DNA of 64,000 nucleotides, taken from assembly GCA_000091205.1 (NCBI GenBank), contig AP006502.2, one strand, 5' to 3'. The stretch's first letter is position 1. The number at the start of each line of letters is the position of its first letter. Made by a program: the position numbers and the translations under genes. Under the pieces are notes generated by a model. That model saw nothing but the letters and a program-made list of their open reading frames with translations. It did not search any database and was not told the origin of the DNA. Of the stretch, positions 880 to 31,813 are shown piece after piece. The DNA comes from Cyanidioschyzon merolae (lineage: Eukaryota).

Positions 880-3415
880 CTCTTTGGTATTTTCTATATC
901 GTCCGCCCTGGTAGCGCATCGCGAATTCTTGCCGTTACGTCACACTCTGTGCGTCTCGCCGATCATGGGGAACGTGTTAATGACCTCTTCTAGAGCGACT
1001 GCTCCATTGGGGCCACTTGCATTTTTAATTGAATGGTAGCAAAGTATTGTTTTGTATTCAATGGCGTTTCTAACTTCTAGTAAGAGTATTCAACTGATTC
1101 TCGCCATTCAACGCAGAGGTGTCCGACGAGTTTTTTACTAAAAAATGTCAGACTTTTGTAATTTTAGGTTGTGTGTTATGGAGGGCCGTTGTCGCCGAGT
1201 ATCGGGAAAAAAGGTGACAGAGTAGCTAATTCCAGAGGACTAGGAAAAGAAGTGGAAGCGAAATGGGGAGGTGCTACGACGAACGCTGCAGTAGTTTCGT
1301 GTCTATGTCGATATGGTTGTGGAATCCTGTCGTCTCCAACATATCAATGATCCGTACGACTGAACGCTCCGAGACGCAATCAGAAACCGCGTCGACTTGC
1401 ACTCCAGGAATGTTTGTTACTCTTTTTTAGGACTTACGCTTTTCGTGAGCGAGCTGCATCGCGACGTAATGCACATCGCAAAAGTGATTCTTCCGGAATA
1501 CTTTATCAAAAAAGACTTTCATCAACCACCTGATTGCTCGCAATGGGGGCGCATCAAAGAGAACTGGGCGGGCGGATGCCTACGTCAAAATTTACGACAA
1601 GTACAGCATCAACGGTGCTGGACACAGGGGTGACGCAGATATTTACGAATACAGGGCTTTAGGTGCCTCACGAATGTGAGGAACCATATGATCCTAATCC
1701 TCGATTGTATCACGATATGCGTTGTCATTGCGCTGTACCCGGGCCTGTTTCGCGAAGGGATACCGGTAATCATCGATGGTATGAAGAACGATCGCCAGCA
1801 TGAACAGAAGATCATATTTGTCGACAAGGGAACATCACGCTGGAGAATAAATAGGTATTCTGTTATCCGCCCAAGTATTCAAAAGCGTCGTTCGGTCTCG
1901 GGACTTGTCAACCCAAGAGAAAAACCTGTCATGTATGGAAAATATGAAGAGAGATGTTCCTTCCTCATCTTGCCCTACTTCATGGTTTTTGGATCGAGAT
2001 CTCGAACGCAGGGCCGAAATGGAGCTGAGTATGGATACAATGGAGTATTGGAGAGTTGGCACTGAAGAACTCCTCCAGTTGCGCTTTATTCGACCGGTTA
2101 TGCGAATTCCAGTCACATGTTTTGATTTTTGACTTTAGAGTTCTTTTCGCCTTCATGGAAGAGGTTTATCCAGTGCCCGATGGATGCGACAGAGACGTAA
2201 CCGGCGAAGACCGGGATACCTACTAGACGCGGAAGTTCGAGCTCAAGCGTCCGAAACCGGCCAGTAAAAGGTATTCACCGGGGCCATGGATAACGATCGG
2301 GTATACATATATGTACACTTTCAGCGGTAGCAGGCATTTGTCCCATCCCGTCTTCTTTACCGCCCTCGCCGAAGCACGGAAACAGGAAGGCCGGCCATGG
2401 GATATATAATCCCCACGAGGACGACCTCGTCGTCGGCCTCAAACCCTGGAATACTGATTTTATAACCATCGTTGTTACAAGCGTTCGGAATATTTTACTG
2501 AATGTAGCTTACGTCGGAATGACAGGCGTCTTTTGAGGTTCTAGAGATCGACGTTCTACCCAGAAGCGGGAATCGTGAATACGAGGAAGAAAATTGAGAC
2601 TTGGGATGCAAAAGTGGAAGAGCATCTCGAAGTTGTGAGCGAGGTGAAGAGCCGAGGAGCGGATTTTCAGGCTTTTCAAGATTTCATGGATGTTCGTTTT
2701 GCTCATTGGGATGCGCTGTGGAAGGAGTATACAAAGCCCCGGTGGGCTTTTCTACGTGCGAATCTATACTGTCGGAAGCAGCATGCATTCGCGGACTTTT
2801 TCAATGAGTTGAGCTCCTTGAAGGAGAATGAAAGTCTGAGGCTCGTAGTAGCATATTGAGCATGGAGCTGGGCGTCGAGAAAGGGGACTACGCGTGCCCC
2901 AACGACAAGGACATTCAAAAAGTGTGCACGGCGTCTCGTTACGGTAACTGTAGATGAATTTGGAGCTTCGTATACACACCACGAGCTGTGATGTACACTC
3001 CACAGGGGCGAGATGGAAAAGTGCCAACGGAACCCTGAGGAAATAGCAAAGTACGGACCGCTGACGGAAGAGCAAATGGAAATGAGGGCAAAAGTTCGTG
3101 GACTCCTTGCATTAGTAGGTACAACGAACGATGGCGAGAAACGGATGGAGTTCGTGAACCGAGACTTTAACGCCGCTATCAGTATCAGTAGATGTGCGGT
3201 GCTGGAGAAGAGACTTGCAAAGTAGACAAGAGACAACTTTGTTGGACAACCTCACAAAGCCGAACTATATGAGAGCAAGTTGGAAGCAGTAGTGGGTGGC
3301 CGGTCGAAAACGGCGGGGAGGCGTCTGCACATCAGCTGGAGACGTTATGTCTCGGGCGCCGGTGGCCACTACTGTGCACGACCGGCGTTGTTCGACTTAG
3401 TACGGCGTTTCGCCG
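880..3415 (+). mobile_element. Fanzor/TnpB-like element, copy 0: 5'-eroded and internally deleted (~330 bp missing between ~2130 and ~2460)
   Basis: Nucleotide and protein similarity to copies 1-4. Left-end-like sequence from ~900, ORF1-like fragments at 1397-2132, and the RuvC-II/III part at 2462-3225 (ORFs 2575..2859 and 3013..3225 end in VNRDFNAAISI). The conserved 3' tail ends ~3415. Confidence 0.55.
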
Positions 3416-3520
3416 CGTAAGCTTCGCGAACCAGATCATCAGGAAACTTCAGGGCGCCGCGCTTAACTCGAAGTGCGCCGTACCTTCGGACTTGCTCGGA
3501 ACATCCGATGCGGATGAAGC

Positions 3521-5401
3521 CTAGCCACAGGCACGACAACCACTTTGGGACGCGTCGCTCGAGCGTGGCAGAGTGATTGCTGGATTTTCATCAAAAAATC
3601 CGTATGGCTGTAGCATGAAGCCAGTGCTCATTGCCGGCTGCACTGGAAAGTCCTCCGGTCTCGGCAAGTGATGAATGCCGAACACGTGCCAGAGCACAAG
3701 ATCCGTATCCTCGATGCATCGATTCTGAGACACAAATCGAAGGATGCCGTCCTGTCCGTCCGAGAGATTCACGAATTCACCAGCTGGAAAGCGCTCTTCC
3801 GGATCATAGGCTGTCACCCACAAATGACGACGGATAAAGCCGGAGCGCTGTCCAGAGGGTGAGTCCGGGTCAAGGAACGGCGTGAGCGGATGTGCCGGTT
3901 CTAGTTTGTAGGCGACTGGCATATTAACACGATTCTTTTTGTTCGGATTCAACACTTTCCAATACCGGTGGCTGGCAGGATTCGCACAGCGACATGCCTC
4001 CAGCTCTGTTCGTAGCGGCGTCTCGGTGACGTAGTACGCATTCCCGTAGGGATTCGCAGCTGCATCCTCTGCTCGCGTATTACACTCTACAACAGAGTTG
4101 CGATCCCCGTCTACGCTGAGGTCCATCCGCACGCAGAAGTAATGCTGGTGAATGTGTCCTTCGACGCCAGGCATAACCTCAGTACCGTAGCGGCTCGGTC
4201 TGCCCGGCTCGCAGGCCACAGTGTTGATGACGCCAGTAGCCCGCATTTCGTACTCAATGGCGCCGTCCTGACGAAAATACCAGTATGAGGCGTACTCGTA
4301 ATTGCAAACCGTTGAAATGCTGGAGATGACGAGGCGTCTACCGCGCCGCGTTTCTGCACGGTCGGTGCGGAAATCCCAGTGCTTCCAGAGCAGGCCGGCA
4401 TCCTCTTCGTGAATGCAGATGGCGTTTGGTATGGTCAACGGCTCGCCGTGCATCGTGGCAATGTGGGCGTCCAAATAAACCACGCAACCGGTACAATCAC
4501 AATTCATCCGTAGCGAGTTCGCTAGCTTACCGATCCCGTACTCCCCAATATCAAAAACATTCTTTCGAAAGTGGGGCTCCACTGGCGTGCCGTACGGCAC
4601 GACCATCTCCACCAGGGAGAGCCTGCGAGCCACTGGGCGTCCAGCAAACCGAATATCATGCAGCGTGATACCCTCGCGTGCATTGAAACCAATCACCAGA
4701 GACCATTGATCCCAGGCAATTGAATGATCGTTCAGGACAAAGCTCGGTCCCTCGTCCTGCACAATGCGCAGCGGCTTCAAGGGCTTGCGAATATCAGTTC
4801 TCAGATTAGGTTCGTAATTGCATTCCGTTCGCGGTACGGGGATATTCTGCAGATCATAAACTTTGAGCACTTTATTGCCCAGGACATCCACCATCGCGTA
4901 AAGTCCTTCAACTGGGTGTGCATAGAGGTTGTCATCGGCATGATTCCGTACCCAGCAGAAAGCCAACGCAAGGTGGTGATCCTTCTCCTCAACGGAACCG
5001 AACGCCCCTGCCGACCACGGATCAATACAAACTAGACTCATGTCTTCGATACCGTGTTTCCTGCACGCAGCCTGGAACTCCGGACACGCCCGTACAGCTT
5101 CTTCTATAGCAGTGAACTGTTCAAGCTGGAGCATAGGGCGAGCGTTCGGGTAGTACTTTTTGGCGATTACGATCTCTTGCGAGAGCGAAACGATCAGCTT
5201 CCACACGCCAATAGAGCTTCTTCGGAAGATGAAGACCTCGGCCTCACGTTCGGTGGGCTTGCCGGCCACCCAGAGCTCTTTGGGTGGCTCGTGGAGCTGA
5301 ATTCGCTCAAAGAGCGGTTCCTCTGGGAAAGGTGCGCCCTGGCGGCCGATGCTGGCAGCACGTAAAATCTCCGCTGGCGTGAGCGGCGTCAACGGGTGCA
5401 T
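3521..5401 (-). CDS. Copper-containing amine oxidase (topaquinone enzyme), single exon, 627 aa from first ATG
   Basis: Uninterrupted 644-aa ORF in the track, but its start is TTG; the first ATG is at 5401. The product contains the TPQ consensus ...TVCNYEYASYWYF... and the His-x-His copper ligand motif (GHIHQHYFCVRMD) typical of copper amine oxidases. Confidence 0.85.
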   Translation of the reverse strand: MHPLTPLTPAEILRAASIGRQGAPFPEEPLFERIQLHEPPKELWVAGKPTEREAEVFIFRRSSIGVWKLIVSLSQEIVIAKKYYPNARPMLQLEQFTAIEEAVRACPEFQAACRKHGIEDMSLVCIDPWSAGAFGSVEEKDHHLALAFCWVRNHADDNLYAHPVEGLYAMVDVLGNKVLKVYDLQNIPVPRTECNYEPNLRTDIRKPLKPLRIVQDEGPSFVLNDHSIAWDQWSLVIGFNAREGITLHDIRFAGRPVARRLSLVEMVVPYGTPVEPHFRKNVFDIGEYGIGKLANSLRMNCDCTGCVVYLDAHIATMHGEPLTIPNAICIHEEDAGLLWKHWDFRTDRAETRRGRRLVISSISTVCNYEYASYWYFRQDGAIEYEMRATGVINTVACEPGRPSRYGTEVMPGVEGHIHQHYFCVRMDLSVDGDRNSVVECNTRAEDAAANPYGNAYYVTETPLRTELEACRCANPASHRYWKVLNPNKKNRVNMPVAYKLEPAHPLTPFLDPDSPSGQRSGFIRRHLWVTAYDPEERFPAGEFVNLSDGQDGILRFVSQNRCIEDTDLVLWHVFGIHHLPRPEDFPVQPAMSTGFMLQPYGFFDENPAITLPRSSDASQSGCRACG

Positions 5402-6072
5402 AATAGAGGTGTCCTGCCTCTTGTGCAGTAGTGCAAAGACAACACGAGCAACCAAGATTACCTCGGTTGCGCTTCAAGGCGCCTCAGCGTCTACCGTACC
5501 AAGCACTGCAACGGTAACCGGGAGCAATGCAGGAATGAATTCCGTTGAGCGATCAACTTGCGACATAGATGTACAGAACGTACAGGAGCAATCTGGGTGT
5601 CGGACACGTCTCCTTCATCGAGCGGGGAGGCGTCTCGCGCAGTGCACGCATCGCTCTTGGTGAGCGTATACCTGGGAAATCAGGCAGTCAACTGACACGA
5701 TGCGTATGCCATTGAAGGGAAACGCGATCCTGATCAGTAGGGTGTTGTTGAACCGGAAAAAGTTGGATTTCAATTCAGGTCGTAGCCAAGAACATTTTTC
5801 ACTTCGTATTTGTTTCAACCTTCAAACAAGTCTAGACAAGTGGTTTTTCGCAGTATATAACAGAAGCGTTCAAAGAGCGTTGTTTTTTTAAAAAAAAAAC
5901 CTAAAAATGGAAAGCTTTGAGAAAGCAAGCTGACGATCCTGGAGGGCTAGGGTCGCCGGCCGCTAGAGACAAACAAAAAGCAGTACCGAGTCCAGAAGAA
6001 AAGGAAGAGAAGAAGAACCGAAAGCGGGAGGCCCTACGTCGGAGGCGGCAAGAAACATGACTGTAGAACGAG

Positions 6073-8267
6073 ATGGAGGTGAAAACCTTTCTTCTTGGAC
6101 GTATAAAGGATCCCTACAGGGAAAAGTTGCGAGAATCTATCGAAAAACGTGTCGACTCGTACTCCTTGAGGATTATGAAGGTTTCTTCATAACTATTCCA
6201 TTTGGTGAAGGAGATGTGTCGCGACGTAACCTAGATGGAAATGGTGGACATTCCGGACAAGTTTTTCGATAAGACCTTTATTCGTCACTTGATGCTTGGC
6301 ACAGAGAAAGCGCGGAAGGAAAATGAGCGGGTGTATGCGCTCCACGAAAAACATCCCTTTTACAGCTTCAAGGGTACTCGGTACAAGGGTGACCGGGATG
6401 TTTACGACTATGGGGCGATGAAGTACCTCACGAACCTGAAGAACCATTTGACAGAGAACCTCGAACGTTCCATGATACGCGCCGTGTTTGCGCTGTACCC
6501 TGGCATCGCTCGCAAAGGAAAATGGGCGATTACCAATGGCGTCACGAACGATCGCAAGCATGAAGATGCTATCGAGCTCGTCGACAAGAAGACATCACGT
6601 AAGCGAAAGAATGAAGCTTCTGTAATCCGTGCGGCCATACACGAGTACCGTACAGTCTTGGGGTTGGCAAATCCGACAGACAAGATATCAGAGTTGAAAA
6701 AATATAAGGAATGATACTATCGCCTCGTCCTGCGCTATTTTGTGTTTCTGGACCGAGAACTCGAACGCAAGGCAGAGGCGAGGCTGAGTGAGGAAAAAAA
6801 TGAAGAGTGGGAGAGACGGAAGGCTTTCCTAATGGGTAAGCGCTTCAACGTCGTTCCAACGTGCAAGATCAAGTGACATTTGTAACTATCGACTCTAGAA
6901 TCCTTCACGCCATCATGAAGGAGATCAGTCCGGAGTTCAGTGTCAGCAAGGAGAAGTTCTCCGGTGAAAACCGGGAGAGGTACTGGAAGAATATCTTCGA
7001 TTTCAAACGCTTGAGAGTGAGCAAGGAAACGTTGTTCACCGGGATGTTTGAAACCGATGGAGTAGCCTAGTGTGTACACTATCGGCGGTTCAAGAAAGAT
7101 CGTCCTGGTCCGCCGTCGGCTGTGCCCGTGACGAAGGATGAAGAAAAGAATGAGGCGGATCCTGCGACGCAGGAGGTGGAGGAGAACGAACTTATCTTTG
7201 ACGCGGCGAATCATGAAGATGAGGAGGAGGCGGATCCTGTGACGCAGGAGGTGGAGGAGAACGACCTTGTCGTTGACGTGGCGAAGCATGAAGGAAAGAA
7301 GGAGGCGGATCCTACAATGCAGAAAACGCAGGAGAACGACTTTGTCGTTGGTGTGGACCCTGGAAATACGAATATCATAACCATCGCAGCACCCAAGCGC
7401 GCGGAAGATGGTGCTGATGGTAACTTGCGTCGGAAAGACATGCGTCTTTTGAGGTTCTCAAGAGCTAGATATTACTGAGAATCCGGTGTAATGTATGCAA
7501 GGAAGAAAACCGAGAAATGGAATTCAGGAATGAAAGATCACCTAAAAGCTTTGAGCGAAGTGACGAGCCGAGGAACCGACTTTGAAGCTTTTCGGAAATT
7601 CATGGAAGATCGGTTTGCGCATTGGGATGCGCTGTGGGAGGAGTATACCATGCCCCGGTGGGCTTGTTTGCGTATGAATTTGTATTGTGGGAAGCAGCGG
7701 GCGTTCGCCAACTTCTTCAATCAGTTGAGCGCCTTGAAGGAGGACCAGAGTCAGAGGCTTGTAGTAGCGTATGGGGCAGGCCGCTGGAAGACCCAAAAAG
7801 GAACAATGCCACCTCCAACGACAAGAACGCACAAGGAGTGCGCACAACGTCTCTTTACGATACCTGTAGACGAGTTCCGAACATCCTATACACACCATGA
7901 ACTGGGATGTACACTTCAGAAAGTGGAGATGGAAAAGTGTTAGCGGAGCCCTGAAGACATAGCAAAGTACGGTCCTTTGACGGAAGAGGAAACGGAAAGG
8001 AGACCGAAAGTTCGAGGGCTACTCGCATAAGTGAATACAACTAACGGGAAGAAACCGATGGAACTCGTGAACCGGGACTTAAATGCCGCTATCAATATCC
8101 GAAAATGTGCGATGCTGGAGACGAGACCTCCAGAATGGACAAGAGGGAACTTTGTTGGACAACCTCTTGAAGTCGAACTATATGAGAGAAAGTTTGAAGC
8201 AGTAGTCGGTGGCCGGTCCAAAAAGACGGGTAGGCGTCTGCACGTCAGTTGGAGACGTCTTGTCTAG
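6073..8267 (+). pseudogene. Fanzor/TnpB-like (OrfB_IS605 family) nuclease pseudogene, copy 1
   Basis: The ancestral single ORF (~730 aa) is broken by in-frame TAA and TAG in the N-terminal part, TGA at 6715, a 1-nt deletion near 6880, TAG at 7071, TGA at 7479, TAG at 7944 and TAA near 8026. Fragments appear in the track as 6235..6714, 6861..7070, 7122..7478, 7491..7943 and 8031..8267. Confidence 0.7.
7122..7330. repeat. Three tandem ~75-bp (25-aa) acidic repeats inside the Fanzor-like ORF, immediately upstream of RuvC-I
   Basis: [26 protein letters not shown] / [25 protein letters not shown] / [26 protein letters not shown]. The other copies carry 1-2 units. Confidence 0.6.
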
Positions 8268-8340
8268 GGCGGCCCGGACGCCACTACTGTACACGGTCGG
8301 CTTCGTTCGAGTTCAGAACGGCGTTTGGCTGTGGTGTTGA

Positions 8341-10854
8341 ATGTCGAGCGCCGATCAGCCTCCGACCCAGTCTCAAGAGCAAAACTGGTCTCAGGTCTCG
8401 AGCACTGTCGTCGAAGTTGCCCACACAGTGGACGTTCATGTTCAACCCGTGTGCTTCGTCGATCTGAGCGAGGAAATTCACGCCTTCGCGCAGCTAGAAA
8501 AGTTTGCGAAGTGTGAATCATCCGAAGTTATCATAGATCTTAATGTCCGAAATACACATCAAGCTGTTGGGGCCCTCGTTCGCTGTCTGGAGGAGCGCGG
8601 AAAGTTGCCAGCTCACTCCGGAGACTTGCTACGGCGGCAGCTCCTGGGCGCAGAGCCACCGTCACTCTTTCAACTTGCACAGCAGGGGCTTCATATGTCT
8701 AGTGGGGGAGACGTACTCGGCCACGCTTCTGGATACTGGACACATAGCATACAGGGGCCCTCTTTTATTATTGGGTATACCGAAACCCCTTTGTTGCTTA
8801 GTGACGAGGAAGCAGTAGCAGTTGCACGGCTCGCACACCCACTGAACGCTGGGGCACTCAACAACTCGCTGACACGCTTCCTAGTACTTGTACTGACGCT
8901 TGCGCACGATACACCCCAGGTTCGCCGGGCGTCCGAAATGGCACGCGTTTTCGCTTCGCTTTTCGCAGATGAAGTATTCTACGACGAAGCTGTCGAGGCG
9001 TCCGATAGAGCTTCTTTCCTGGAGGCTATCCATCGTTTCCTTGAACGGCAACGGGACGCTGCACGAGAACGCGAAGCGCTGCATCGAAGCGTTCGATTGG
9101 CGACAGCAGCCACGGTGACTTTCTTCGATGATGATAATCATGTTGATGGTGATGGCGTTGCGGAGTATCTTGGTGGTACAGATGGCGGTACCCTTTCTGG
9201 GTGCAGAACAAAAGATGTGACTATTAACGACAATTTTGGTATCATGAACGCTCGCCTCGACCGATACTTCAAAGCACAAGGATATTCGAATCTGGATACG
9301 GTGCCACGCTGGAAGTACTGGTTGGCGCTGTTCTTTCGCTTTCCGGGGGCATTGATGGCTGCAGATCTTCGCCGCCGTCTACCCCATTATCGATCCGACT
9401 GGACAGCGGAATGGAACAAGATTCACGCTCTCGGAAAGTATTTCTTCGCGAGTATTTTTCTCATATTTACAGTCACGTTGCCTGCGATTGTTTTCGGCGT
9501 TATAGCGAGTCGCACGACTCACGGAGAGATTGGTGTCATCGAGTGTCTGTTTGCCCAGGGTGTACTGGGCATTGGTTTTGCGTTCTTCAGCGCCCAGCCG
9601 CTGATGGTGAATATGGTCACTGGTCCCACCATCGTCTACATTCAAGTGCTCTATCGCTGGTCCCAGAGGCTCGGGTTCGCATTTCTTCCCTTTTTTGGAT
9701 GGACAGGTATTTGGATGGGCATTTTTGTGATGTCGTATGCGATCATGAATACGTCAACACTCATACCGTACCTTGGCCGATTCACTGATGAGATTTTCCA
9801 AACCTTTATTGGAATCATTTTTATTCAATATTGGTTTACGGAATTTGTCCGAGTTACGCACACTGGCTACGAACAGGTCCTTTTATTCTTGGTGCTTTCT
9901 CTGGGAACGCTTCTGCTTGCGTTACTTCTGGTGTCTGTACGAGGCAGTTTCCTGCTACGCCCCATACTGCGATCCATTCTGGGGGACATCGGCCCCGCTC
10001 TCTCTGTTTTCATTTGGACCGGTCTGTCGTACGCGTTCGATCCGATTGATGTGCCTCGTCTGCAGATACCGGGCTCTGTTGGTTACAGCACAACGACTGG
10101 ACGACCGTGGATTGTCCCACTAGGAAGTCTATCCGTCGGCTATGTATTTTTGGCCATCGTTCCCGGCTGGCTGCTCTCGCTCATCGTCTACATTGATCAA
10201 CAGGTGTGTACTTATATCGTGGAACGACCGGAAAATCGCTTGCGCAAAGGCACTGGGTACAGTTGGAATCTTTTCGTGACTGGCGCTCTTGCCGTTCTTG
10301 CCTCGATTCTCGGCATACCTTGGATGTATGCAGGGCTGCCACACTCGCTTTTGCACGTTTATGCACTTGCTGAAATTGAGGACATAGAGCTCATGGGAAG
10401 ACGATGGATACGTGTTCTTCGTGCGCGGGAGGTGCGCATTGCTGCACTAAGCGCTTACCTCTTTGCCTTGTTGATCATTCTGGCCAAACCAGCTCTAGAT
10501 CAGCTGCCGATCTATGTGTTGTACGGCTTTATTCTGTACATGGGTGCAGCTTCATTTCTGAACAACCCTCTCTGGGATCGATTCGTTCTCTTGTTTACAC
10601 AGCCAACCAAGTACCCACCGACACATTATGTTCGACGTGTCCCCATGAGTCACCTGCACCTCTACACCTCTGTTCAGGTAATCCTTACAGTCGTTCTCTT
10701 TTTTGTCGCGGTCAATTTTTATCGAGGTGCAACTCTATTCAATACTGGCCTCATCTTTCCATTGGTCCTGTTCCTTTTCGTCCCATTCAAGTGGATGGTG
10801 TTGTATCGCTGGTTTCCGCGACGTGAGCTGCGCGTGCTTGAAAATCAGCTTTAG
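8341..10854 (+). CDS. SLC4/band-3-type anion exchanger (HCO3-/borate transporter family), 837 aa, single exon
   Basis: The start is ATG. The N-terminal half is cytoplasmic and the C-terminal half is multi-TM. Band-3 signatures are present: DLRRRLPHYRSDW (compare DIRRRYPYYLSD), GVIECLFAQGVLGIGFAFFSAQPLMVNMVTGP (compare [32 protein letters not shown]) and FTEFVRV. Confidence 0.8.
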   Translation: MSSADQPPTQSQEQNWSQVSSTVVEVAHTVDVHVQPVCFVDLSEEIHAFAQLEKFAKCESSEVIIDLNVRNTHQAVGALVRCLEERGKLPAHSGDLLRRQLLGAEPPSLFQLAQQGLHMSSGGDVLGHASGYWTHSIQGPSFIIGYTETPLLLSDEEAVAVARLAHPLNAGALNNSLTRFLVLVLTLAHDTPQVRRASEMARVFASLFADEVFYDEAVEASDRASFLEAIHRFLERQRDAAREREALHRSVRLATAATVTFFDDDNHVDGDGVAEYLGGTDGGTLSGCRTKDVTINDNFGIMNARLDRYFKAQGYSNLDTVPRWKYWLALFFRFPGALMAADLRRRLPHYRSDWTAEWNKIHALGKYFFASIFLIFTVTLPAIVFGVIASRTTHGEIGVIECLFAQGVLGIGFAFFSAQPLMVNMVTGPTIVYIQVLYRWSQRLGFAFLPFFGWTGIWMGIFVMSYAIMNTSTLIPYLGRFTDEIFQTFIGIIFIQYWFTEFVRVTHTGYEQVLLFLVLSLGTLLLALLLVSVRGSFLLRPILRSILGDIGPALSVFIWTGLSYAFDPIDVPRLQIPGSVGYSTTTGRPWIVPLGSLSVGYVFLAIVPGWLLSLIVYIDQQVCTYIVERPENRLRKGTGYSWNLFVTGALAVLASILGIPWMYAGLPHSLLHVYALAEIEDIELMGRRWIRVLRAREVRIAALSAYLFALLIILAKPALDQLPIYVLYGFILYMGAASFLNNPLWDRFVLLFTQPTKYPPTHYVRRVPMSHLHLYTSVQVILTVVLFFVAVNFYRGATLFNTGLIFPLVLFLFVPFKWMVLYRWFPRRELRVLENQL

Positions 10855-13800
10855 ATGGAAATTTCTGATCGAGTCTTGGGAGTTTTCCAGTAAAATTGGC
10901 CATCGCAGATTGATAGATAGACTGTAGAGTCGGAAATCGTGTTTACATTTCATCGAAGCGCAAATTGCTGGGGCAGGCATGTATCAGCAGAGGCCCTTTT
11001 TGCGAGTACGGGAGGTAGGTGCTTTCCTGATGCGAGGCCGAGATCTCGAGTCCAAAGTGATCCGCTGATGCTTGCTTTTCCAGAGGTAGAGACTCCCTTT
11101 GCCGGAACTGGTCGTGATTTGTACCCACAACCGGTACGGAAGGCACGTCAGTGAAGAGATTCGCTACGACTATACGCGGTATCATACGATTATGCTGCGG
11201 AGATCTCGGATACGAGAGCCGAAATACAACACGTGGCGCTGATAAAACAACCCGCTTGATTGCATGCGACTTGTTGGACATTCGGGAACAAGGCGGTTCA
11301 TTTTGAAACGCCCATGCCAGCATACCTTCTTTGTTTATGTTTGTTATTCTCGCTGGTATTCGCGAATCGACCGTGTCGCATAGATTGGAAATGAGCCGTG
11401 GAAAGAGTACATGCTGTTATCATCGGACAACGTCATACGAGATTACAGGTGAAACACAGTGATTCTAGGGTCATCAAACGGATGAACGAGTTTTTCGTTG
11501 TACTTATCTTGACCCTCCTACACCCAAAACTAAACACAGAAATATCGCCTACAAGACTGTGTCCGGGTTCATCCTTTTCTTTGCATGCGACCTCGAAGAG
11601 AGACTACAATCACCTACAGGGTGTGAATGGTCCACATCGTTGATTCGGACAGCGATCAAGGGACACAGACGGACAGAAGGAAGGCATTATTTATTGCAGA
11701 CCGCCACGCTCCGAACAGGGCAAAATCGAATTCATACTCAAACGCACGCGTATCTCTCGGGAGAAAGAGGTATGGATCTCGAATGGTGAAGTTCTAGTCA
11801 AGAGAAATACTATTCTTGAATATGGGTACTCGGAGGTTAAGCGTAAACCCCTGATCGTAAAAGAGACAGCGCGCAACCTGACAACATCGGTCTTACCAGT
11901 TTCCAAGTACATCGTGTGCTGGGAATCGCGGAACTTGCAGCATAACTCAATGACACATGTTCCTTCCGAGTACTTCACAATGCCTCCTTCACAAAACCAT
12001 AGAACCCGATCGTCGATGACGTCGGTCTCCATCACATAGAAGCGGACGGAAAATACGCAGCTGATATTGGCAGCTGTTGCTATTTGGTCCTTCCCATTCT
12101 ATCTGGACAAAATCAGCAACTGGGATCTTCTCTGCAGTCAGACGATAATCGTGTATACACAGATCACTTAGAGAGTTGTTCGACTTCGTGAAATTGAACT
12201 TCTTTGATAAAACCTTCCTCGACATATCGGTGACCTACTTTACCAGCTCATAGCCACCGTCATCTTCCTCGTACATATGAAGGAGGAGGAAGAAAGGCGA
12301 GCGCCAAACTGTAGGCGTGCTCGCGACGGCAAGACTGGGTTGATTTACTAGAAGAAGTAACTTTCGTCGCACGGTCCATCCCGCACAAACGACTCCTTTT
12401 GGAAACAAATGCATCCACAGTAAGCTGGCCACTGCCAAGCACTCCTTCGGTGTGGATGAAAAACGGTGTAACGGGAAGGATGAGAAGCAACGGGAAAGAA
12501 AGGAAGAGAATCCTCCAGGAAGACGACCAAGGAGGACTTGGGGCAAAAGCTGTCGGAGCGGAAACATCTTTCAGGAACCATCGTCAAGGCCTCCGTCCTA
12601 CAACTTACCATCAGGAATAATCTCCCACACAACGAAATGCTCAACATCGTTCCCGATCGCGTGGCTTCTGTCTCGACGCAAGGTAAACCCAGTTTCCCGC
12701 TCCACGATGCATGTCGCTGAGCAGGTGTTCGTACCAGTCTCGGACGCAGAGCTGCTAGCAGCCGGGATTCCTCGGGAGCTTTTCGATCTCGGCTTTGTGC
12801 CATAACACAATGGATGCTCGGGACGGAAGACGCAGTGCGGTCCGAGTACAGGATCAGGGAGATACGCGCACACACACACATTACCCAGACTTGGTTGACG
12901 CTTCACTGCACAATGTTGACGATCGGAACATCTGCACTGCAGGCGACCATAACACTATCAAACCGACCACTGCAATCAAGTCCATACGCCTGCCAAATGA
13001 CGAGCGCTCCATGCAGCGCACCCTGTAGGCGTTCCATTCTCACGCTGGCGGCCCCGGTGAGTTGGTACTGACACCAAAAAAGAATCTTCGCCTCTGCGCA
13101 TACACGAGCGTCCATATCGCCCAGGCGGACAATCCGTGGCACGAATCCATGCGACAGTGCTGGTGCTGCCAAAAGATTCCATTCGACGGAGGCAGGTCTC
13201 TTGCATTCACCAACTTGTCCAATGCACTGAAAAGATAAGTGACCGAAAAGCCGTTTTGTTTTCCGGTGGTAACCCGCGTCGCTGGACGTTCTGTGGCGAG
13301 CCATGGAGACGCCCATGTCCCTTCGACGAACGCACGCCGCAAGTGCATTGCTCCATGCCGAACGAATCCCATCGATGCATCCAGGGCGCCATCCAGGTAT
13401 CTTGAGCACGGGCGCGCATGCACGAAGCTACAGAAGAAGGGCTTGAAATACATCCAGATGAACGAGATGGCGTGCGTCTCGCTGACTTGACGGAGATACG
13501 AATGCCTCGATCGGCATCCGAAAAGGACCCCTGCGATTCGGGAGCGTCCATCGTTTCTTTTTTTCTGCCGGAGGATCTTTCCAGTTGATCTATTGACGAC
13601 GCAGTGCGCCGTTGTTCGGCAGAGCGGAATGCTTCTGATCCAAAGAAATCAATGCCAAAGATATAACGCATTTGATTCCGGTCTGGAGCAATGCACTGGT
13701 ATTGTATGAGCTGCAACCCAGTAGGTCTTGAGCGCCGTACGTTTGCACTGGAAGTGATGCTTCCAGGCAAAAAGTAGAAGATATTGCTGTCCTATGGTTC

Positions 13801-15037
13801 GCTATTATTGACTAGTAAGTAAGAGCAGTACGGCTTCATTTGATCCAAAAGTGAAATCGACCACCGATAGGATTGTGACAAGCGTCAATTGAGACGAAGA
13901 GCGCTCCTATAGCACGATAGACTCTATGACAGTTGCTACATAACAAACACGGATGCTCCTGCATTCAGCGTATATGTCGTGCAACTCCATGCTTCAATGT
14001 GTCCAGTCATGGTCGGCCGTTTGCGAGCGTGACAGTCCACGTCCACTCAGAGAAGCAGTTCTCCTCGAGAGTCAACGTAGGCACAGCGTTAGGGTCCACC
14101 TGATAGTAGCGTCTCACAACTGATACCAGCGTGATTAGGTGGCTTAACGGTACGATACGTTTATCCTAAAAAATAAAACACCCCAGCAATACGACAGCCA
14201 GTGCATTGCTTTCTTCGGGAAGACGACTCGTCTATTGTTAGGCAACGTTGCGGTACGACACGCATCTCACCGGACACGTAGGAGAAGGCGTATATCAGCA
14301 AGAGGGATCCTACTCGTCCCCCAGTATCCATTCGCATTCCAGAATGCTATCGGAAAGAAGGAACCGACGAGCGCCGCCGATCACACTGCTGGAGTATCAC
14401 AGGGGCATATCATACTAGGTGTCCCTATTACGGCAATAAGCTCCTGAGCAAACCTTCTGCAACCATAACACAAAGTCTGAAATGCTCTCCCTATTTTGGA
14501 TGACGTCCGGAGGCTCTATCCGTAACGTCCAGGATGGCACCTGTGCCTGAAACTCGCCCTGCTCCACCTACTGAGCGCACGTGGACCTGAAGGCGCACAG
14601 GAAAGAGCACCATACGCATCTGCCGCCTACACTGCCGAGTGAATCGTAAGACACCACGACCAAGAAAAGCGTTTATACACAGTACGCACCAACGCATGCC
14701 ATCCCCCTCTGATCCGTCTGGAGTTGCCGGACGCACGCTTCACAGTCGCAACTAGCCGGCTGTCCCATGAGCGAGGTTCAGCTACAGATCCACCCATAAC
14801 AGATTCGATGTCCCTGCTCGCCTCGTAACGTCCGCCACTGCTCCCAGAAGCGAAGCGCCTCATTCGCACAAACGCGTGCTTAGACGGCAACGTCCCTACC
14901 GTACGCAAGAACCGCGCCCGTACAACCCGCATCACTTGAACTGAAGCAGCGATACCTACAGTTCCCGATGCGTACAGCGCTCGTCACGCCCGGGGCGCTT
15001 GGCGATGTGGCTTTCAGGGCAGAGAGCGTGGGCGAGC

Positions 15038-17622
15038 TCGCCTGGGAAATCGCGCAGTCAACTGACACGATGCGCGTGCCGCCGATGAAGGGAAACGTTG
15101 TCGTGATCAGTTACGTGTTGTTCTGCTGTAAACATCGGATTTCTGTTGAGGCCATAGCAAAATACAGTCTTTCGGTTCGGTTTTGTTTCAAACTTCAACC
15201 AAGTCTAGTAAAGTGCTTTTTCGCAGCATATAACAGAAGCGTTCATTGAGGGTTCATTAAAAAACGAAAAACGGAAAGCTATGGAAAACCAGTCGACGAT
15301 CCTGGAGGGCTAGGGTCGCCGGCTGCCAGAAAAAAAACAAAAAGCAGTGCCGAGTCCAGAAGAAAAGGAAGGGAAGATGAACCGAAAGCGGGAGGCCCTA
15401 CGTCGGAGGCGGCAAGAAACATGACTGTAGAACGAGATGGAGGTGAAAACCTTTCTTCTTGGACACATCAAGGATCCCTACAGGGAAAAGTTGCGATACC
15501 CTATCAGAAAACGTGTCGACTCGTACTCCTTGAGGATTATGAAGGTTTCTTCATAACTATTCCATTTGGTGAAGGAGATGTGTCGCGACGTACCGCAGAT
15601 GGAAATGGTGGAGATTCCTGACAAGTTTTTCGATAAGACCTTTATTCGTCACTTGATGCTTGGCACAGAGAAAGGACGGATGGAAAATGAGCGGGTGCAT
15701 GCTCTCCACGAAAAACATCCCTTTTACAGCTTCAAGGGTACTCGGTACAAGGGTGACCGGGATGTTTACGACTATGGGGCGATGAAGTACCTCACGAACC
15801 TGAAGAACCGTTTGACAGAGAACCTCGAACGTTCCATGATACGCGCCGTGGTTGCACTCTACCCGGGCCAGTCTCGCCAAGGAAAATGGGCGATTATCAT
15901 AGGAATCACCAAAGATCGCAAGCATGAAGATGAGATCGAACTCGTCGACAAGAAGACATCACGTAAGAGAAAGAATGAAGCTTCTGTCATCCGTGCGGCC
16001 ATACACGAGTACCGTACAGTCTTGGGGTTGGCAAATCCGACAGACAAGATATCAGAGTTGAAAAAATATAAGGAATGATACTATCGCCTCGTCCTGCGCT
16101 ATTTTGTGTTTCTGGACCGAGAACTCGAACGCAAGGCAGAGGCGAGGCTGAGTGAGGAAAAAAATGAAGAGTGGGAGAGACGGAAGGCTTTCCTAATGGG
16201 TAAGCGCTTCGACGTGGTTCCAATGTGCAAGATCAAGTCACATTTGTGACTATCGACTCCGGCGTCCTTTACGGCATCATGAAGGAGATCAGTTCCGAGC
16301 TCAATGTCAGCAGGGAGGAGTTCTCCGGTGAAAACCGGGAGACGTACTGGAAGAATATCCTCAATTTCAAACGTCTCAAAGTCAGCGCGAAAAAGAAATT
16401 CACTGGGATGCTCGAAACCGATGGAGCAACCATTTGTGTACACTATCGGCGGTTAAAGAAAGATCGTCCAGTCCCGCCCTCGGCTGAGTCCTCTGCGAAA
16501 CATGAAGAAAACAAAGAAGCGAATCCTGAGACGCAAAAATTGCAGGATGACGACCTTGTCGTTGGCGCGGTGAGGCATGAAGAATAGAAGGAGGCAGATC
16601 TTGCGACGCAGGAGGTGCAGGATAACGACCTTGTCGTTCCTGCGGACCCGGGGAATACAAATATCATAACCATCGTTGTGCCCAAGCATGCGGAAGATGG
16701 TACTGACGGCAACTTACGTCAGAAAGACACGCGTGTGTTGAGATTCTCGAGAGCGAGAAATTATCGAGAATCCGGTATAATGAATGCGAGGAAGAAAATC
16801 GAGACTTGGGATGCAGGAATGAAGGATCAAATGGAAGCTTTGAGCGAGTTGACTAGCCGACGAACGGACGTTGAAGCTTTTCGGAAATTCATGGAAGTTC
16901 GCATTGCGCATTGGGATGCGCGGTGGGAGGAGTATACAAAGCCCCGGTGGGCTCGTCTGCGTATGAATTTCTACTGTGGCAATCAGCGGGCGTTCGCGAA
17001 TTTTTTTTAATAAGTTGAGCGCCTTGAAGGAGAATGAAAGTCAGAGGCTCGTAGTAGCGTACGGAGCAGGACGTTGGGCGTCGAGAAAAGGGACTACACC
17101 AGCTCCAACGACAAGGGTGTACAAAGAGTTCGCAAGGCATTTCGTTACGATACCTGTATTTGAGTTCCGAACATCGTATACACACCATGAGCTGGGTTGT
17201 ATACTCCAGAGAGTCGAGATGGAAAAGTGCCTGCGGAGTCCTGAAGATATACAAAAGCACGTACCGCTGACGGAGGTGCAACTGGAAAGGAGGGCGAAAG
17301 TGCGAGGGCCTCTCGCATTAGTAAGTACAGCCAATGATGGCAAGAAACGTATGGAGTGTGTGAACCCAGATTTTAATGCCGCTATCAATACAGGAAAAAG
17401 TGCGGTGCTGGAGAAAAGATCTCCAGAGTGGACAAGAGGGAACTTTATTGGACAACCTCTCAAAGTTGCACTATATAAGAAGAAGTTGTAAGCAGTACTA
17501 GGTGACCGGTCCAAAAAGAAGGGGTGGCGTCTGCCCTTACTTGGAGATGTTTCGTCTAGGGCGCGGTTACAGCCACTACTCTACAGCTGGCGACAGCGTT
17601 TTTTCTTTTGAAAGGTGTTTCT
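15038..17622 (+). mobile_element. Fanzor/TnpB-like element, copy 2 (pseudogenised)
   Basis: Same left end, ORF and right-end tail as copy 1. It shares copy 1's two N-terminal nonsense codons and its 1-nt deletion, and has its own frameshift at the run ttttttttaataag (~17005). Confidence 0.75.
15437..17560 (+). pseudogene. Fanzor/TnpB-like nuclease pseudogene, copy 2
   Basis: Track fragments are 15566..16078, 16225..16587, 16615..17010 ([13 protein letters not shown]...RLLRFS) and 16976..17491 (LVVAYGAGRW ... FEFRTSYTHHELGC ... VNPDFNAAINT). Confidence 0.7.
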
Positions 17623-19566
17623 TTCCAGGGGTGCGTCCGCCAAGCGACACTATCCAACTGGAAGCCCGCAAGCACCAGCAACGTCCTCTGTAGAGCGCAA
17701 TCACGAAACCTGCACAGGATCACACGTGGGCGGTACCAGCTTCGCTGTCAATGCTCCTCGAGAAAATGCTCTGCAGCGGGATATAACGCGCTGCCTGGCC
17801 GAACTGTAGGCCGAAGCTCACCAGCCCGTTTCCGTGACTATAATATATCGTATCGAGGTTTCGCGTCGTAGCGCTTTGTATACCGACGGTTAAATAGAGT
17901 GTGGAGGCAAACGACGAACGCTTATCTCGCACGTACGCAGCACAAGTTAAACTAACTCAGACGATACCGCTTGCAGACGATTCGACGGCGCCTGGCTCAT
18001 CACTGTGCAATTCGTCGTGGCAGACCCCTCTGACGCTCGGAGTACTTTGGTCGGCAAAGATATTGGCTAAAGAGGTTTGTGTACTTGCTGCTGGGAACTC
18101 CTTCTGTTCCAGGCCTGGTACGAGCGCCAACTCCGGGAGATCGTTTACGAGCATCCAACTTTGCCGGACGTTGGTGATGCGGGCGGGCGGTGGTAGCAAG
18201 TCGAGGCGCTAGCGCCGCGCTTCTAAGGCGTCACGAGCGAGCAAGCAGTGAAGCTTCGAAGTATACGGTGCCACGTACGGCAAAGAGCGTTGTCCCCCAC
18301 GTAATCCTGACCGTTTATCTTACGCAAACGCGTCGGTAACCATTCCTTGCTTTCCCAACATTGAATCTATCAACTGTTTCACCTGTGCGCACTACTTGTT
18401 CACGAACTTAGAGTGAAATCCGCCTCGCACGAAGCCATTCGGATGAACCATGCTACCTGTGCTCCGCCAGCGATGAGGACGCGGGTCTGCGCTCATCCGT
18501 CGTGTTTTGTACTAGCTGAAGGACTTCAATAGTACCAGTGCATGAGAGCATTGACAGCAAGTCTGAGAATACGTCGCCACCGCAGTGCAAGCGCGTTACA
18601 AGCACACACGCACATGAAACCGCTACTATATCCATCTCTCTCGGAGCAAGCATCATCGGCCCAGTCACTATTTCGATCGATCTAATAGTTCACATCTTCT
18701 ACGGTTTCCATTCCACACAGGATTCACATTTCGATATTCTGTTTGCTGCTTATTTTAGCAACGCAACAGAACAAGTCGCTGTCGCAGAATAGCCCCAATC
18801 TGACCACTGCGCATCTGGTTCGGTCGCTGACGTTCCCTCACGAACGCAAAGCGGAACTATGGCAACAATGTGTATCGAATGCTACAAAGAAAGCGGATAT
18901 ACACGGAGAGCAGCTCGAAAGGTGCGAAACGAAGCATACAGACTGCGAGTTTTTCCAAGCTCCATCATGAATGTGGCATTTGGTAAAAGAACCTCCCCAA
19001 TACCGTGACATTGTAAACGGAGCGCACCGTTCCAGTACAGAGCAATTTTCATTCCCGTGTTCACCGAAATGGAACGATGCCTGGCGGATCCACTCCGCTG
19101 CAAACAGTATTTGCGGAAGGCCAAAGCTTCAGCGATAAGGTGCACTTTGAAACGCTCCTGAAGCAGATGTAGTTCTGTGTACGTGTAATTGATGCGCTGC
19201 GTGTATTAGCACCAATAGTGCTGCTCGAAAAGCCCTTGATAAGAAGGTAACGGGCAAAACTTTTCGTTCCAAGTCACTCGACAGCTGGCGTGTATTGCGA
19301 GGTGAGGTCACTCACCGGTTCAGAAGTAATAGTACGCGAGCGTGTGTTTCAGTGCTGCTGCCGCTTATTCCACCAGATGACTCGAGACCTGCTACATAAA
19401 AGTCATGAGTTCCGTGCATCAGCCACGTCCACACTGCGGCTGAATTGCCCAGAGTGCACTTAACACCATCGAGGAGCGCTTTTGCAGAGCGTCCTGCCTC
19501 CCATGCATGGATCCCTTGACTGGGGCGTTCTGAGCACCTTCAGTCGATAGGCTATTCTTGAAAAGA

Positions 19567-22500
19567 TCAAATGATGTTCTGCACGTGTTGAATTCGAGGA
19601 ACGACATAGAACCAACGACCGAATGCCGTCATATTCATCCCATTGTTCGTGCTAGATAGACCGCCGCTGCCACTGGTGCCTGAACCAGAAGTTCCGCTGC
19701 TGCTACCACTACCGGTGTCACTGGTGCCTGAACCAAAAGTTCCGCTGTTGCTACCACTGCTTGTGTCACTGGTGCCTGAACCAAAAGTTCCGCTGTTGCT
19801 ACCACTGCTTGTGTCACTGGTGCCTGAACCAGGAGTTTTGCTGCTGCTACCACTGCCGGTGTCACTGGTGCCTGAACCAGGAGTTCCGCTGTTGCTACCA
19901 CTGCTTGTGTCACTGGTGCCTGAACCAGGAGTTCCGCTGTTGCTACCACTGCTTGTGTCACTGGTGCCTGAGCCCAAATTCCCGGCTCTGCTGCTACTGC
20001 TGCTGACAGGGATAGCGGATGTCTGCTCGATGATCCTATCCGGGCCTGAAGATGAGGTAGTTGGAGCATCGATACCTGTTCCAGGGCGGGGTGTTGACCC
20101 TAGACTGCTAAAAGTTGGCGGACTTATCGTGGTACGCATCGCTGTTGCGAATGCCCCCAGTGTGGATGAATGCGAGTTACGTTCTCCGCCGGGTTCCACA
20201 TTGTCTAAAAAGGAGCCGCCAGAAGTGCTCGTTGTAATAACCGGACTAAAGGGCGGTGGTAGTGTTGCCGTGGTCGCCACAGGTAGAGTGCTTACAGAGA
20301 GCGATGAGGCCTGTGATGATGTGGGGGTCACCGACATCGCATTCATCGTAGCGATGTACGGAGTTGGTGTGGGATGAACAACAGCTGGAGTAACCGTTGC
20401 AGTTGCTCTTGGAGCGCTTTCGGCACTATGGGTGCTGTTCCGCTCAGGTTCAGCAAAAAAGGCCTCAGAGACGCCAGACGATGCCGTGCCATTCGAGGTT
20501 GACGTACCCGCCTGGGTGCATACGCAGAGGTCGCCAACGCAGACCTTGGCCAGGTTACCAGAACAGCTGCCGGTGGTCGTTACGCACCCGCAGATATCTC
20601 CCAATAGACATGTGTAGACGACTCCTCCGGGGCACGGGGGAACCGAAGTAGACGAGACCGTACTCGTCGATGTAGACGTCGACGTGGTCATCGCTACGGA
20701 CGACGGCGTGCCAGTCGACGAAAACGAAGATATAGAGGCCGAGGGAACATTCGGAGAAGGTGAAGAAGAACTCGTCGACGAAGGCGTAAAATAAGGGATT
20801 GTTGTCGCTGCAGCAGTAGCCGATCTGTCCAACGATTGCCGTAACGAAGCACTCGATGACGCACTCGATGACGCACTCGATGACGCACTCGATGACGCAC
20901 TCGATGACGCACTTACAGATGCCTTTCGAGTCGGATGACGAGAGCGACCGCTCGATGACGATACATGGTCAGACGTACTGCGTGAGGAAGAAGAGCTCAT
21001 GGAGTACGAGTACGAGGCACTGGCAGATGCACTCGCAGATGAACTAGCAGACGCACTCGCAGAGGCGCTTAGAGATGCACTCGCAGAGGCGCTTAGAGAT
21101 GCACTCACAGAGGCGCTTAGAGATGCACTCGCAGAGTCATACGCGCTCACAGAGTACGAACCAGAAGCGCTCGCAGATGCGCTGGCAGACGCAGACTCGC
21201 TCTTCGACTGAGAGTACGAGTACGAGTACGAGGCACTGGCAGATGCACTCGCAGAGGCGCTTAGAGATGCACTCGCAGAGTCATACGCGCTCACAGAGTA
21301 TGAACCAGAAGCGCTCGCAGATGCGCTGGCAGACGCAGACTCGCTCTTCGACTGAGAGAACGAGTACGAGTACGAGGCACTGGCAGACGCACTCGCAGAG
21401 GCGCTTAGAGATGCACTCGCAGAGTCATACGCGCTCACAGAGTACGACCCAGAAGCGCTCGCAGATGCGCTGGCAGACGCAGACTCGCTCTTCGACTGAG
21501 AGTACGAGTACGAGTACGAGGCACTGGCAGATGCACTCGCAGAGGCGCTTAGAGATGCACTCGCAGAGTCATACGCGCTCACAGAGTACGACCCAGAAGC
21601 GCTCGCAGATGCGCTGGCAGACGCAGACTCGCTCTTCGACTGAGAGTACGAGTACGAGTACGAGGCACTGGCAGACGCACTCGCAGAGGCGCTTAGAGAT
21701 GCACTCGCAGAGTCATACGCGCTCACAGAGTACGACCCAGAAGCGCTCGCAGATGCGCTGGCAGACGCAGACTCGCTCTTCGACTGAGAGTACGAGTACG
21801 AGTACGAGTACGAGGCACTGGCAGACGCACTCGCAGAGGCGCTTAGAGATGCACTCGCAGAGTCATACGCGCTCACAGAGTACGAACCAGAAGCGCTCGC
21901 AGATGCGCTGGCAGACGCAGACTCGCTCTTCGACTGAGAGTACGAGTACGAGTACGAGGCACTGGCAGACGCACTCGCAGATGAACTAGCAGACGCACTC
22001 GCAGAGGCGCTTAGAGATGCACTCGCAGAGTCATACGCGCTCACAGAGTACGACCCAGAAGCGCTCGCAGATGCGCTGGCAGACGCAGACTCGCTCTTCG
22101 ACTGAGAGTACGAGTACGAGTACGAGGCACTGGCAGACGCACTCGCAGATGAACTAGCAGACGCACTCGCAGAGGCGCTTAGAGATGCACTCCCTGAGGC
22201 GCTTAGAGATGCACTCGCGGAGGCGCTTAGAGACGCACTCGCGGAGGCGCTTAGAGATGCACTCGCAGAGGCGCTTAGAGATGCACTCGCAGAGGCACTG
22301 GCAGACGCACTCGCTGAGGCGCTTAGAGATGCACTCGCAGAGTCATACGCGCTCACAGAGTACGACCCAGAAGCGCTCGCAGATGCGCTGGCAGACGCAG
22401 ACTCGCTCTTCGACTGAGAGTACGAGTACGAGTACGAGGCACTGGCAGACGCACTCGCAGAGGCGCTTAGAGACGCACTCGCAGAGGCGCTTAGAGATGC

Positions 22501-31770: not shown

Positions 31771-31813
31771 AATGCTGCCACAAGTAAACGTCTTGTCTAT
31801 GAAAAAAAGAATC

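Follow-up and report, generated by a model that had tools for sequence, protein, structure and literature searches.

Among described Fanzor1 systems, SpuFz1 of Spizellomyces punctatus is encoded by an element of ~2.1 kb with one open reading frame (ORF), and its guide RNA (omega RNA) consists of a 75-nt scaffold running from the stop codon to the right end of the element, plus a 14-15-nt guide taken from the flank (Saito et al. 2023, PMC10432273). In the solved RNA, a first stem-loop is joined through a 6-nt linker to a long stem 2 (U35-A75), the distal portion of which can be dispensed with, and the guide comes next; S. punctatus also carries 'ghost' loci that hold an omega RNA without the ORF (PMC10432273). 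In GtFz1, SpuFz1 and PpFz1, stem-loop 1 (SL1) has 7 bp and the region from SL1 to the guide is variable (PMC11423790). In Cyanidioschyzon merolae, a red alga, CMe-1A was described as a Fanzor1 family of ~3 kb with ~150 old copies ~80% identical to their consensus, without terminal inverted repeats (TIRs), with its target-site duplications (TSDs) left undetermined, and with a 5' part in common with the repeat TE-N2_CMe (Bao & Jurka 2013, PMC3627910). The 64,000-nt stretch of C. merolae DNA analyzed here (contig AP006502.2, assembly GCA_000091205.1; hereafter the window) contains five decayed copies, c0 to c4, of a ~2.65-kb Fanzor1 element, all on the same strand, as revealed by repeat finding and a five-copy alignment. 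The conserved tail that follows the nuclease stop codon in these elements is probably the omega-RNA scaffold of Fanzor1 in a family of transposons without TIRs from cyanidiophycean red algae.

This tail shows sequence conservation, secondary structure, covariation and strand specificity, and its end falls exactly on the repeat boundary. It is a non-coding stretch directly 3' of the nuclease stop, common to c0-c3 and missing in c4; the original prediction, made from the sequence of the window, had described it in the same four copies, and rightly so. The tails and their parts, all on the plus strand, are as follows:

3352-3417, plus strand: tail of c0, with the stop mutated to TCG, SL1 2 nt shorter and the second stem-loop (SL2) decayed (covariance-model match of 27 bits)
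8265-8336, plus strand: tail of c1 (alignment, folding)
8265-8286, plus strand: SL1 of c1, with core GGCG 8268-8271 pairing CGCC 8279-8282 around the loop GCCCGGA (minimum free energy, MFE, fold)
8287-8291, plus strand: linker CUGUA of c1, single-stranded, unpaired in all well-preserved folds
8292-8333, plus strand: SL2 of c1, the long terminal hairpin, 16 bp, whose base CAC...GUG is the right end of the element (folds)
8334-8353, plus strand: flank of c1, the would-be guide if the omega-RNA reading holds, containing the ATG (8341) of an HCO3-transporter gene (boundary analysis)
17557-17633, plus strand: tail of c2, with a subfamily B apex, too decayed for a covariance-model match at E<=0.01 (alignments)
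34364-34441, plus strand: tail of c3, the best preserved in the window (covariance-model match of 52.1 bits)
34364-34385, 34386-34390 and 34391-34441, plus strand: SL1, linker and SL2 (23 bp) of the c3 tail (fold pair list)

Beyond the window, a metagenome scan returned related stretches, 509 in all, and 80 loci were retrieved. Across 82 tails (51 distinct), a single layout recurs, in which the stop codon is followed by GGCG-N7-CGCC, CACTACTGTA and a long hairpin CAC...GTG, with unrelated sequence beyond it; the tail size is 69-78 nt. One subfamily has the SL2 apex CGTTCGA-CTT-TCGAACG, another AACGTTTTT-CTTTYG-AAAGRCGTT. A covariance model made from eight seeds and searched against 0.55 Mb gave 78 matches; 76 of these are real and all lie on the ORF strand, the other 2 being weak palindromic echoes. 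As in c0-c3, the tail begins at the stop codon in the 76 family matches, in sense orientation. Within the window, the box GCCACTACTGTACAC is found with 0-2 mismatches at the four tails only, and with 3 mismatches allowed it gives 9 matches against 0.97 expected. Three solo tails lacking an ORF are among the covariance-model matches. These (L076:531-600, L040:~329-410 and L027:294-369) consist of the last ~35 nt of the ORF, SL1 and SL2. The 5' end (GGGCTCGATGTA..) of a ~750-nt 'alpha' repeat, itself followed by a full Fanzor copy, comes 1-8 nt after each of them. In the copies L020 and L041/42, the SL2 apex is deleted and the stem base is kept.

The covariation is real and is located in SL2, a hairpin of 17-23 bp across the family. 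The original prediction had listed its sequence as part of a 'ggcg...ggcgttt' pattern without recognizing in it the dominant hairpin of the tail; the covarying pairs that it proposed to look for are found here. In a model-fitted alignment, 86.6% of cells are paired, versus 26-60% with the partners slid, and double changes are found in 13 pairs, where shuffles give 6.4 and 0 of 500 reach 13; these counts derive in part from the fitted alignment and reflect few subfamily-level events, not many independent ones. In an alignment-free chimera test, in which the SL2 5' half of one locus is joined to the 3' half of another, native hairpins average -18.25 versus -14.0 kcal/mol for chimeras when all copies are taken together (0/5000 permutations at least as stable). 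The corresponding values are -20.5 versus -18.6 kcal/mol within the subfamily A apex (11/5000) and -19.5 versus -17.1 kcal/mol within the subfamily B apex (21/5000). An ungapped 9-mer complementarity test of the SL2 base was weakly positive (7.30 vs 7.07, 60/5000) and is not relied on. RNAalifold, which had also been suggested as a check, gave a poor consensus on the plain MAFFT alignment (-3 kcal/mol), because loop length differs between subfamilies; a structure set by hand, the covariance model and the chimera test took its place. The SL2 cells include 560 Watson-Crick, 169 G·U and 42 A·C combinations, a G·U to A·C ratio of ~4:1 drawn from non-independent events. The mean fold is -19.1 kcal/mol for the sense and -13.7 kcal/mol for the antisense strand, the sense strand being more stable in 46 of 50 copies. 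This bias points to selection on the sense strand.

Unlike SL2, the core of SL1 is conserved without compensatory change. The four small-hairpin sequences quoted in the original prediction are exactly as written; the co-variation read from them is absent. The GGC/GCC stem is unchanged in c0-c3, its fourth pair being broken in c2 and lost in c0, and across 41 distinct family members (plain MAFFT alignment) pairing at the four core positions reaches 94.5%, without a single double change. In c1, the stop codon UAG (8265-8267) can pair with CUA (8284-8286), leaving A8283 bulged and bringing SL1 to 7 bp; in the family, this extension is 81% paired with 2 compensated cases, and an inner SL1 pair flips between C-G and G-C (16:15). 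By column, the SL1 stems and the box are conserved at 0.88-1.0, and the 7-nt loop between the stems at 0.47-0.77. The linker lies within a nearly invariant box, CCACUACUGUACAC (8281-8294), whose column identity of 0.88-0.98 equals or exceeds that of ORF codon positions 1-2. An additional hairpin in the last ORF codons (GGCGTCT...AGACG) is 84% paired, and third-codon conservation there is hardly raised (0.84-0.86 vs ~0.81 upstream).

Structurally, the well-preserved tails fold into an SL1 of 7-8 bp that includes UAG:CUA, a 5-nt linker and an SL2 of 19-23 bp. The predicted folds that display the order of 7-bp SL1, linker, SL2 and guide are those of c3 (MFE -39.1 kcal/mol, z = -5.07, 0/200 shuffles as good), L047 (MFE -38.5 kcal/mol, z = -5.17) and L001 (MFE -30.2 kcal/mol, z = -3.38).

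The element has its right end at the base of SL2, because sequence shared between copies stops 0-3 nt beyond the final base pair of this hairpin. Among non-allelic loci, 64 pairs share at least 90% identity over the last 30 nt of the tail, and in 41, 14, 6 and 3 of them the common sequence stops 0, 1, 2 or 3 nt past that base pair, respectively. In c1, the conserved unit ends with ..GGCTGTG[GTG] at 8333-8336, not at 8342 as first proposed, and the c3 tail starts at 34364/34367 instead of 34374. The guide starts placed just past 8342, 17622 and 34443 were 2-11 nt off; the corrected starts are 8334/8337, 17634 and 34442, with 3418 for c0, and that of c1 is ambiguous because of a GTG GTG repeat. 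Genome sites matching these flank guides were sought as well, and each flank 16-mer is present at its own, occupied locus only, the c1 16-mer always standing beside the tail, in seven other assemblies. No empty site matching the flank 16-mers was found in 0.61 Mb. A search through the HCO3-transporter gene gave no record of the exact protein and returned its 100% cluster on five short contigs, every one of which breaks inside Fanzor, and the Cyanidiococcus orthologue of this gene has different neighbours, with no empty site readable.

Several right ends lie close to host genes. The distance to the first ATG of the same-strand gene is 5-8 nt in c1 (HCO3 transporter) and 0 nt in c3 (Pex2/12-like, 34442), and a same-strand ORF of at least 100 aa starts within 50 nt in 11 of 50 distinct flanks; the first downstream ORF shows no significant same-strand bias (26 vs 17). 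An intrinsic terminator-like hairpin was considered and rejected: there is no conserved T-run after SL2, only unrelated flank.

Compared with SpuFz1, the elements of the window share a single-ORF organization at ~2-2.7 kb, the position and size of the tail, and the order of SL1, linker and long stem 2, with a linker of 5 nt here and 6 nt there. The apex-deleted derivatives resemble the dispensable distal stem 2 of SpuFz1, and the solo tails its 'ghost' omega-RNA loci. As judged from predicted folds, the match to an omega RNA is one of architecture, not of sequence: RNA sequence similarity is not detectable, and the proteins are remote (profile E=9e-9). Spu-1 also has inverted repeats of 30 nt, and its left end is preceded by a conserved CA, whereas the window elements have no TIRs. 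For SpuFz1, expression, a transposon-adjacent motif (TAM; CATA) and cleavage have been demonstrated. With PpFz1, the closest solved protein (PDB 9cf0, profile E=9e-15), and GtFz1, the family has in common a 7-bp SL1, which is the conserved protein-binding module of the solved RNAs, and a variable region between SL1 and guide (Xu et al. 2024, PMC11423790); however, SL2 has 4 bp in PpFz1 and GtFz1 has four stem-loops, against an SL2 of 17-23 bp here. CMe-1A is likewise a red-alga Fanzor1 element of similar size without TIRs, and from this description, not from a match to the Repbase consensus sequence, we infer that the window elements belong to its family. The 5' part of CMe-1A is tied to TE-N2_CMe, whereas variable upstream modules (alpha, beta, gamma, delta) are seen here, and the paper that described it (PMC3627910) appeared before omega RNAs were known and contains no description of a 3' RNA module. 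Like ISDra2 and IS608 of the IS200/IS605 group, the elements have hairpins near both ends and neither TIRs nor TSDs, and the reading of the tail recalls the omega RNA (reRNA) of IS200/IS605 TnpB, whose scaffold overlaps the right end and whose guide is taken from the flank. Here, however, the host is eukaryotic, no TnpA (Y1) gene was noticed (no dedicated search was made), the scaffold lies 3' of the ORF instead of largely inside it, and the target motif is undefined.

By analogy with these systems, the RNA would be the 3' end of the nuclease transcript, produced in sense orientation and starting at the stop codon or a few bases 5' of it. It would fold into SL1 (7 bp, formed partly by the stop codon), the 5-nt CUGUA linker and the long SL2, and would extend ~15-20 nt into host DNA past the right end. 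This flank-derived stretch would be the guide, directing the nuclease to an element-free copy of the same site, as for TnpB and SpuFz1; transcription, nuclease binding, guide use and cleavage would all follow these precedents. The Fanzor1 identity of the gene, the position of the tail, its boundary, its layout, the SL2 covariation, the sense-strand G·U bias, the apex-deleted derivatives and the solo tails favour the omega-RNA and right-end assignment of the original prediction, although the small-hairpin argument once offered for it was mistaken. Also in its favour is the related P0046/P0047 family (40% protein identity), whose 3' UTR retains a stem-loop with ACUGUA behind it; this family resides in a DDE_3 transposon with imperfect TIRs and TA ends.

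A number of observations weigh against this assignment. The conservation-only core of SL1 fits a sequence-specific DNA or protein-binding site equally well, and the events behind the SL2 covariation are few. The c1 tail, on which attention was first focused, has the same topology as the well-preserved copies, yet folds no better than shuffles (z = -0.99, 31/200 as good), as do c0 (z = -1.13) and c2 (z = -0.38). Every nuclease frame in c0-c4 is broken by in-frame stops or frameshifts, making all five pseudogenes, and P0001, the longest homologue found, has a premature stop too. No TAM or empty site could be defined, only an AT recurring before the left end; a TAM is not derivable because four different repeat modules precede the left ends. 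Rfam 15, whose coverage of Fanzor omega RNAs is uncertain, gave no match at gathering score or E<=10 in 7600-8400. Three more distant families (L096-L098), likewise carried by DDE_3 elements, do not have the ACUGUA box, nor does L095. Finally, IS200/IS605 transposases use G·T-tolerant, strand-specific hairpins as single-stranded DNA (ssDNA), and the strand bias of SL2 alone is no proof of RNA, because a top-strand DNA hairpin would give an equal bias.

In IS200/IS605 elements, one right-end region serves both transposase and guide RNA, and a DNA-level role of the end hairpins may exist alongside the RNA role. That they are a transposition signal only, recognized by a transposase as folded ssDNA or a cruciform in the manner of IS200/IS605 or Helitrons and with no guide RNA, is unlikely. 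The coincidence of the repeat boundary with the SL2 base would suit such a signal, as would the absence of TIRs joining the ends (for CMe-1A, neither TIRs nor TSDs were found; PMC3627910) and a left end that too begins with a hairpin, compensatorily different between subfamilies. However, the consensus SL2 has 4-5 G·U pairs in 19 bp, which would be weak as G·T in DNA, and layout and size fit the solved Fanzor1 RNA (PMC10432273). Moreover, no HUH/Y1 transposase was noticed (no search was dedicated to it), the sole transposase relics being of the TIR-using DDE_3 type, and deletion derivatives retain the stem base beside the flank, as would be expected for guide presentation.

It appears quite improbable that the tail is an ordinary 3' untranslated region (UTR) element without guide function, serving the nuclease mRNA in stability, translation termination or the formation of its 3' end. 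Its location directly after the stop codon on the sense strand, with the stop codon itself able to pair in SL1, is what such an element might show, but the tail ends at the element boundary and not at a poly(A) site, no U-run follows SL2, where flanks are unrelated, and the layout corresponds to the one seen in known Fz1 omega RNAs. A 3' UTR role is less likely for a unit that stops at the repeat boundary and persists as solo tails without the ORF. Hardly credible is the absence of any function, with the similarity reflecting the shared ancestry of recently duplicated copies. The copies are indeed paralogues, and the tails of c0, c1 and c2 fold no better than shuffles, but the copies are only 60-85% identical overall, conservation is concentrated in the SL1 stems and box relative to the loop, and paired positions carry compensating changes.

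The elements that carry these tails, and the other features of c1, are the following:

~910-3417, plus strand: copy c0 (repeat finding, alignment)
5650-8336, plus strand: copy c1, CMe-1A-like, ~2.65 kb (five-copy alignment; left junction from 43 left ends, right boundary from non-allelic pairs)
5650-5666, plus strand: left-end hairpin of c1, AT followed by CGCTC-TTGGT-GAGCG (sequence reading; 43 aligned left ends)
5980-8267, plus strand: Fanzor1 coding region of c1, decayed through one frame change and several TGA/TAG/TAA stops in frame (ORF list)
15023-17633, plus strand: copy c2 (repeat finding, alignment)
31811-34441, plus strand: copy c3 (repeat finding, alignment)
56119-~58570, plus strand: copy c4 (repeat finding, alignment)

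By its sequence, the nuclease gene is a Fanzor1, because a profile of 12 homologues matches Parasitella PpFz1 (9cf0, E=9e-15) and Spizellomyces SpuFz1 (8gkh, E=9e-9); Pfam-A gave no match above threshold for the consensus protein. The majority consensus of the five copies is one intact ORF of ~707 aa, with the motifs GADPGNTN, PVDEFRTS and NRDLNAAINI corresponding to the RuvC D/E/D residues, and NRDLNAAINI is among the RuvC motifs read in the coding region of c1. No intact, potentially active nuclease gene stands beside a tail among c0-c4. The c1 tail (8265-8336), with its dead nuclease gene and eroded SL2, is a relic that could at most act in trans. An acidic stretch just upstream of the RuvC-I motif is encoded by a 75-nt tandem unit, which is present three times in c1 (7127-7351), twice in c2 (16491-16640) and c3 (33297-33446), once in c4 (57578-57652) and not at all in c0. 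Over the 5' ~1.1 kb (5966-6881 vs 15330-16245), c1 and c2 share 94-98% identity, whereas identity falls to 73-81% in the 3' half (7394-8271 vs 16683-17564), a contrast that suggests gene conversion or recombination between copies.

The left end also begins with a hairpin, which differs compensatorily between subfamilies across 43 aligned left ends: the family consensus is GCGCTC-GGT-GAGCGC, and that of the gamma subfamily GCGCG-GTCGATA-CGCGC. At least four different repeat modules (alpha, beta, gamma, delta) precede the left ends. The 35-85 nt upstream of c1 (about 5614-5649) are common to 'alpha'-type copies only, and an A-rich 'beta' module (31622-31810, ending GAAAAAAAGA) abuts the left end of c3, a junction that recurs in L045, L047 and L042. 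No TIRs joining the element ends were found; with subterminal hairpins at both ends and no TIR, the element resembles IS200/IS605 in this respect. No Y1/HUH transposase was noticed beside any copy, no dedicated search having been made.

Distant Fanzor1 relatives from other metagenomes (L088-L094, L096-L098; 31-42% identity) lie directly downstream of a DDE_3 transposase gene. These DDE_3 carriers (L088-L098) have imperfect ~30-nt TIRs (TATACTC.../...GAGTATA), TA at the ends, insertion-specific flanks after TA, and a 3' non-coding region of 125-215 nt; the window elements share none of these carrier features, and the DDE_3 transposase, TIRs and TA target duplication are absent from the window copies. 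When the transposases accompanying these relatives were used as tblastn queries, DDE_3 (Tc1/mariner-type) relics were detected at 11674-11895 (plus strand), and at L024:5841-6518, L011:5892-6497 and L032/L039/L070:4220-4556. This transposase type thus exists in the genome, though outside the Fanzor copies.

A speculative extension, to which we attach very little probability, is that the element moves by an IS200/IS605-like, hairpin-directed route in which the end hairpins are DNA signals and SL2 doubles as the last stem of a guide RNA through which emptied sites regain the element. If true, an alga would possess a complete 'peel-and-paste plus RNA-guided homing' system, and the solo tails beside the 5' ends of other repeats, as well as the right ends that abut host start codons, would be traces of targeting.

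The genes around the copies are eukaryotic and intron-free, and include those for the HCO3 transporter, a copper amine oxidase and the Pex2/12-like protein (ORF list and Pfam). The HCO3 transporter is 81% identical to a Cyanidiococcus yangmingshanensis protein and 52-57% identical to Galdieria proteins, which places the host among the cyanidiophycean red algae. Among the fetched loci, L015 and L017 are the c1 locus itself (99% identity). The L014 contig is 94% identical to 4347-8325 of the window and holds the orthologous Fanzor insertion; it diverges inside SL2, in the 3' arm, and the gene downstream is a different one, which could represent a right-end rearrangement in a sister lineage. Upstream of c3, within 28156-30675, lies an 839-aa reverse-transcriptase ORF (RVT_1). 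On the minus strand, 19567-26931 holds a 2454-aa ORF composed mostly of tandem units 144-168 nt long, 43 repeat copies of which were detected.

If the tail is a Fanzor1 omega-RNA scaffold, then a Fanzor1 family of thermoacidophilic red algae that has been known since 2013 only as an unclassified transposon gains a concrete, testable omega-RNA model, composed of SL1, CUGUA, SL2 and the flank. Such a tail is an expected feature of elements of this kind, and in the window it is ordinary and decayed. With ~500 copies, however, rebuilding an active nuclease and its ~70-nt scaffold by consensus would be feasible, and the product would be a candidate for a compact and possibly heat-tolerant genome editor. 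The family would also indicate that a minimal RNA of the SpuFz1 type can occur in an element without inverted repeats, which sharpens the question of how such elements move.

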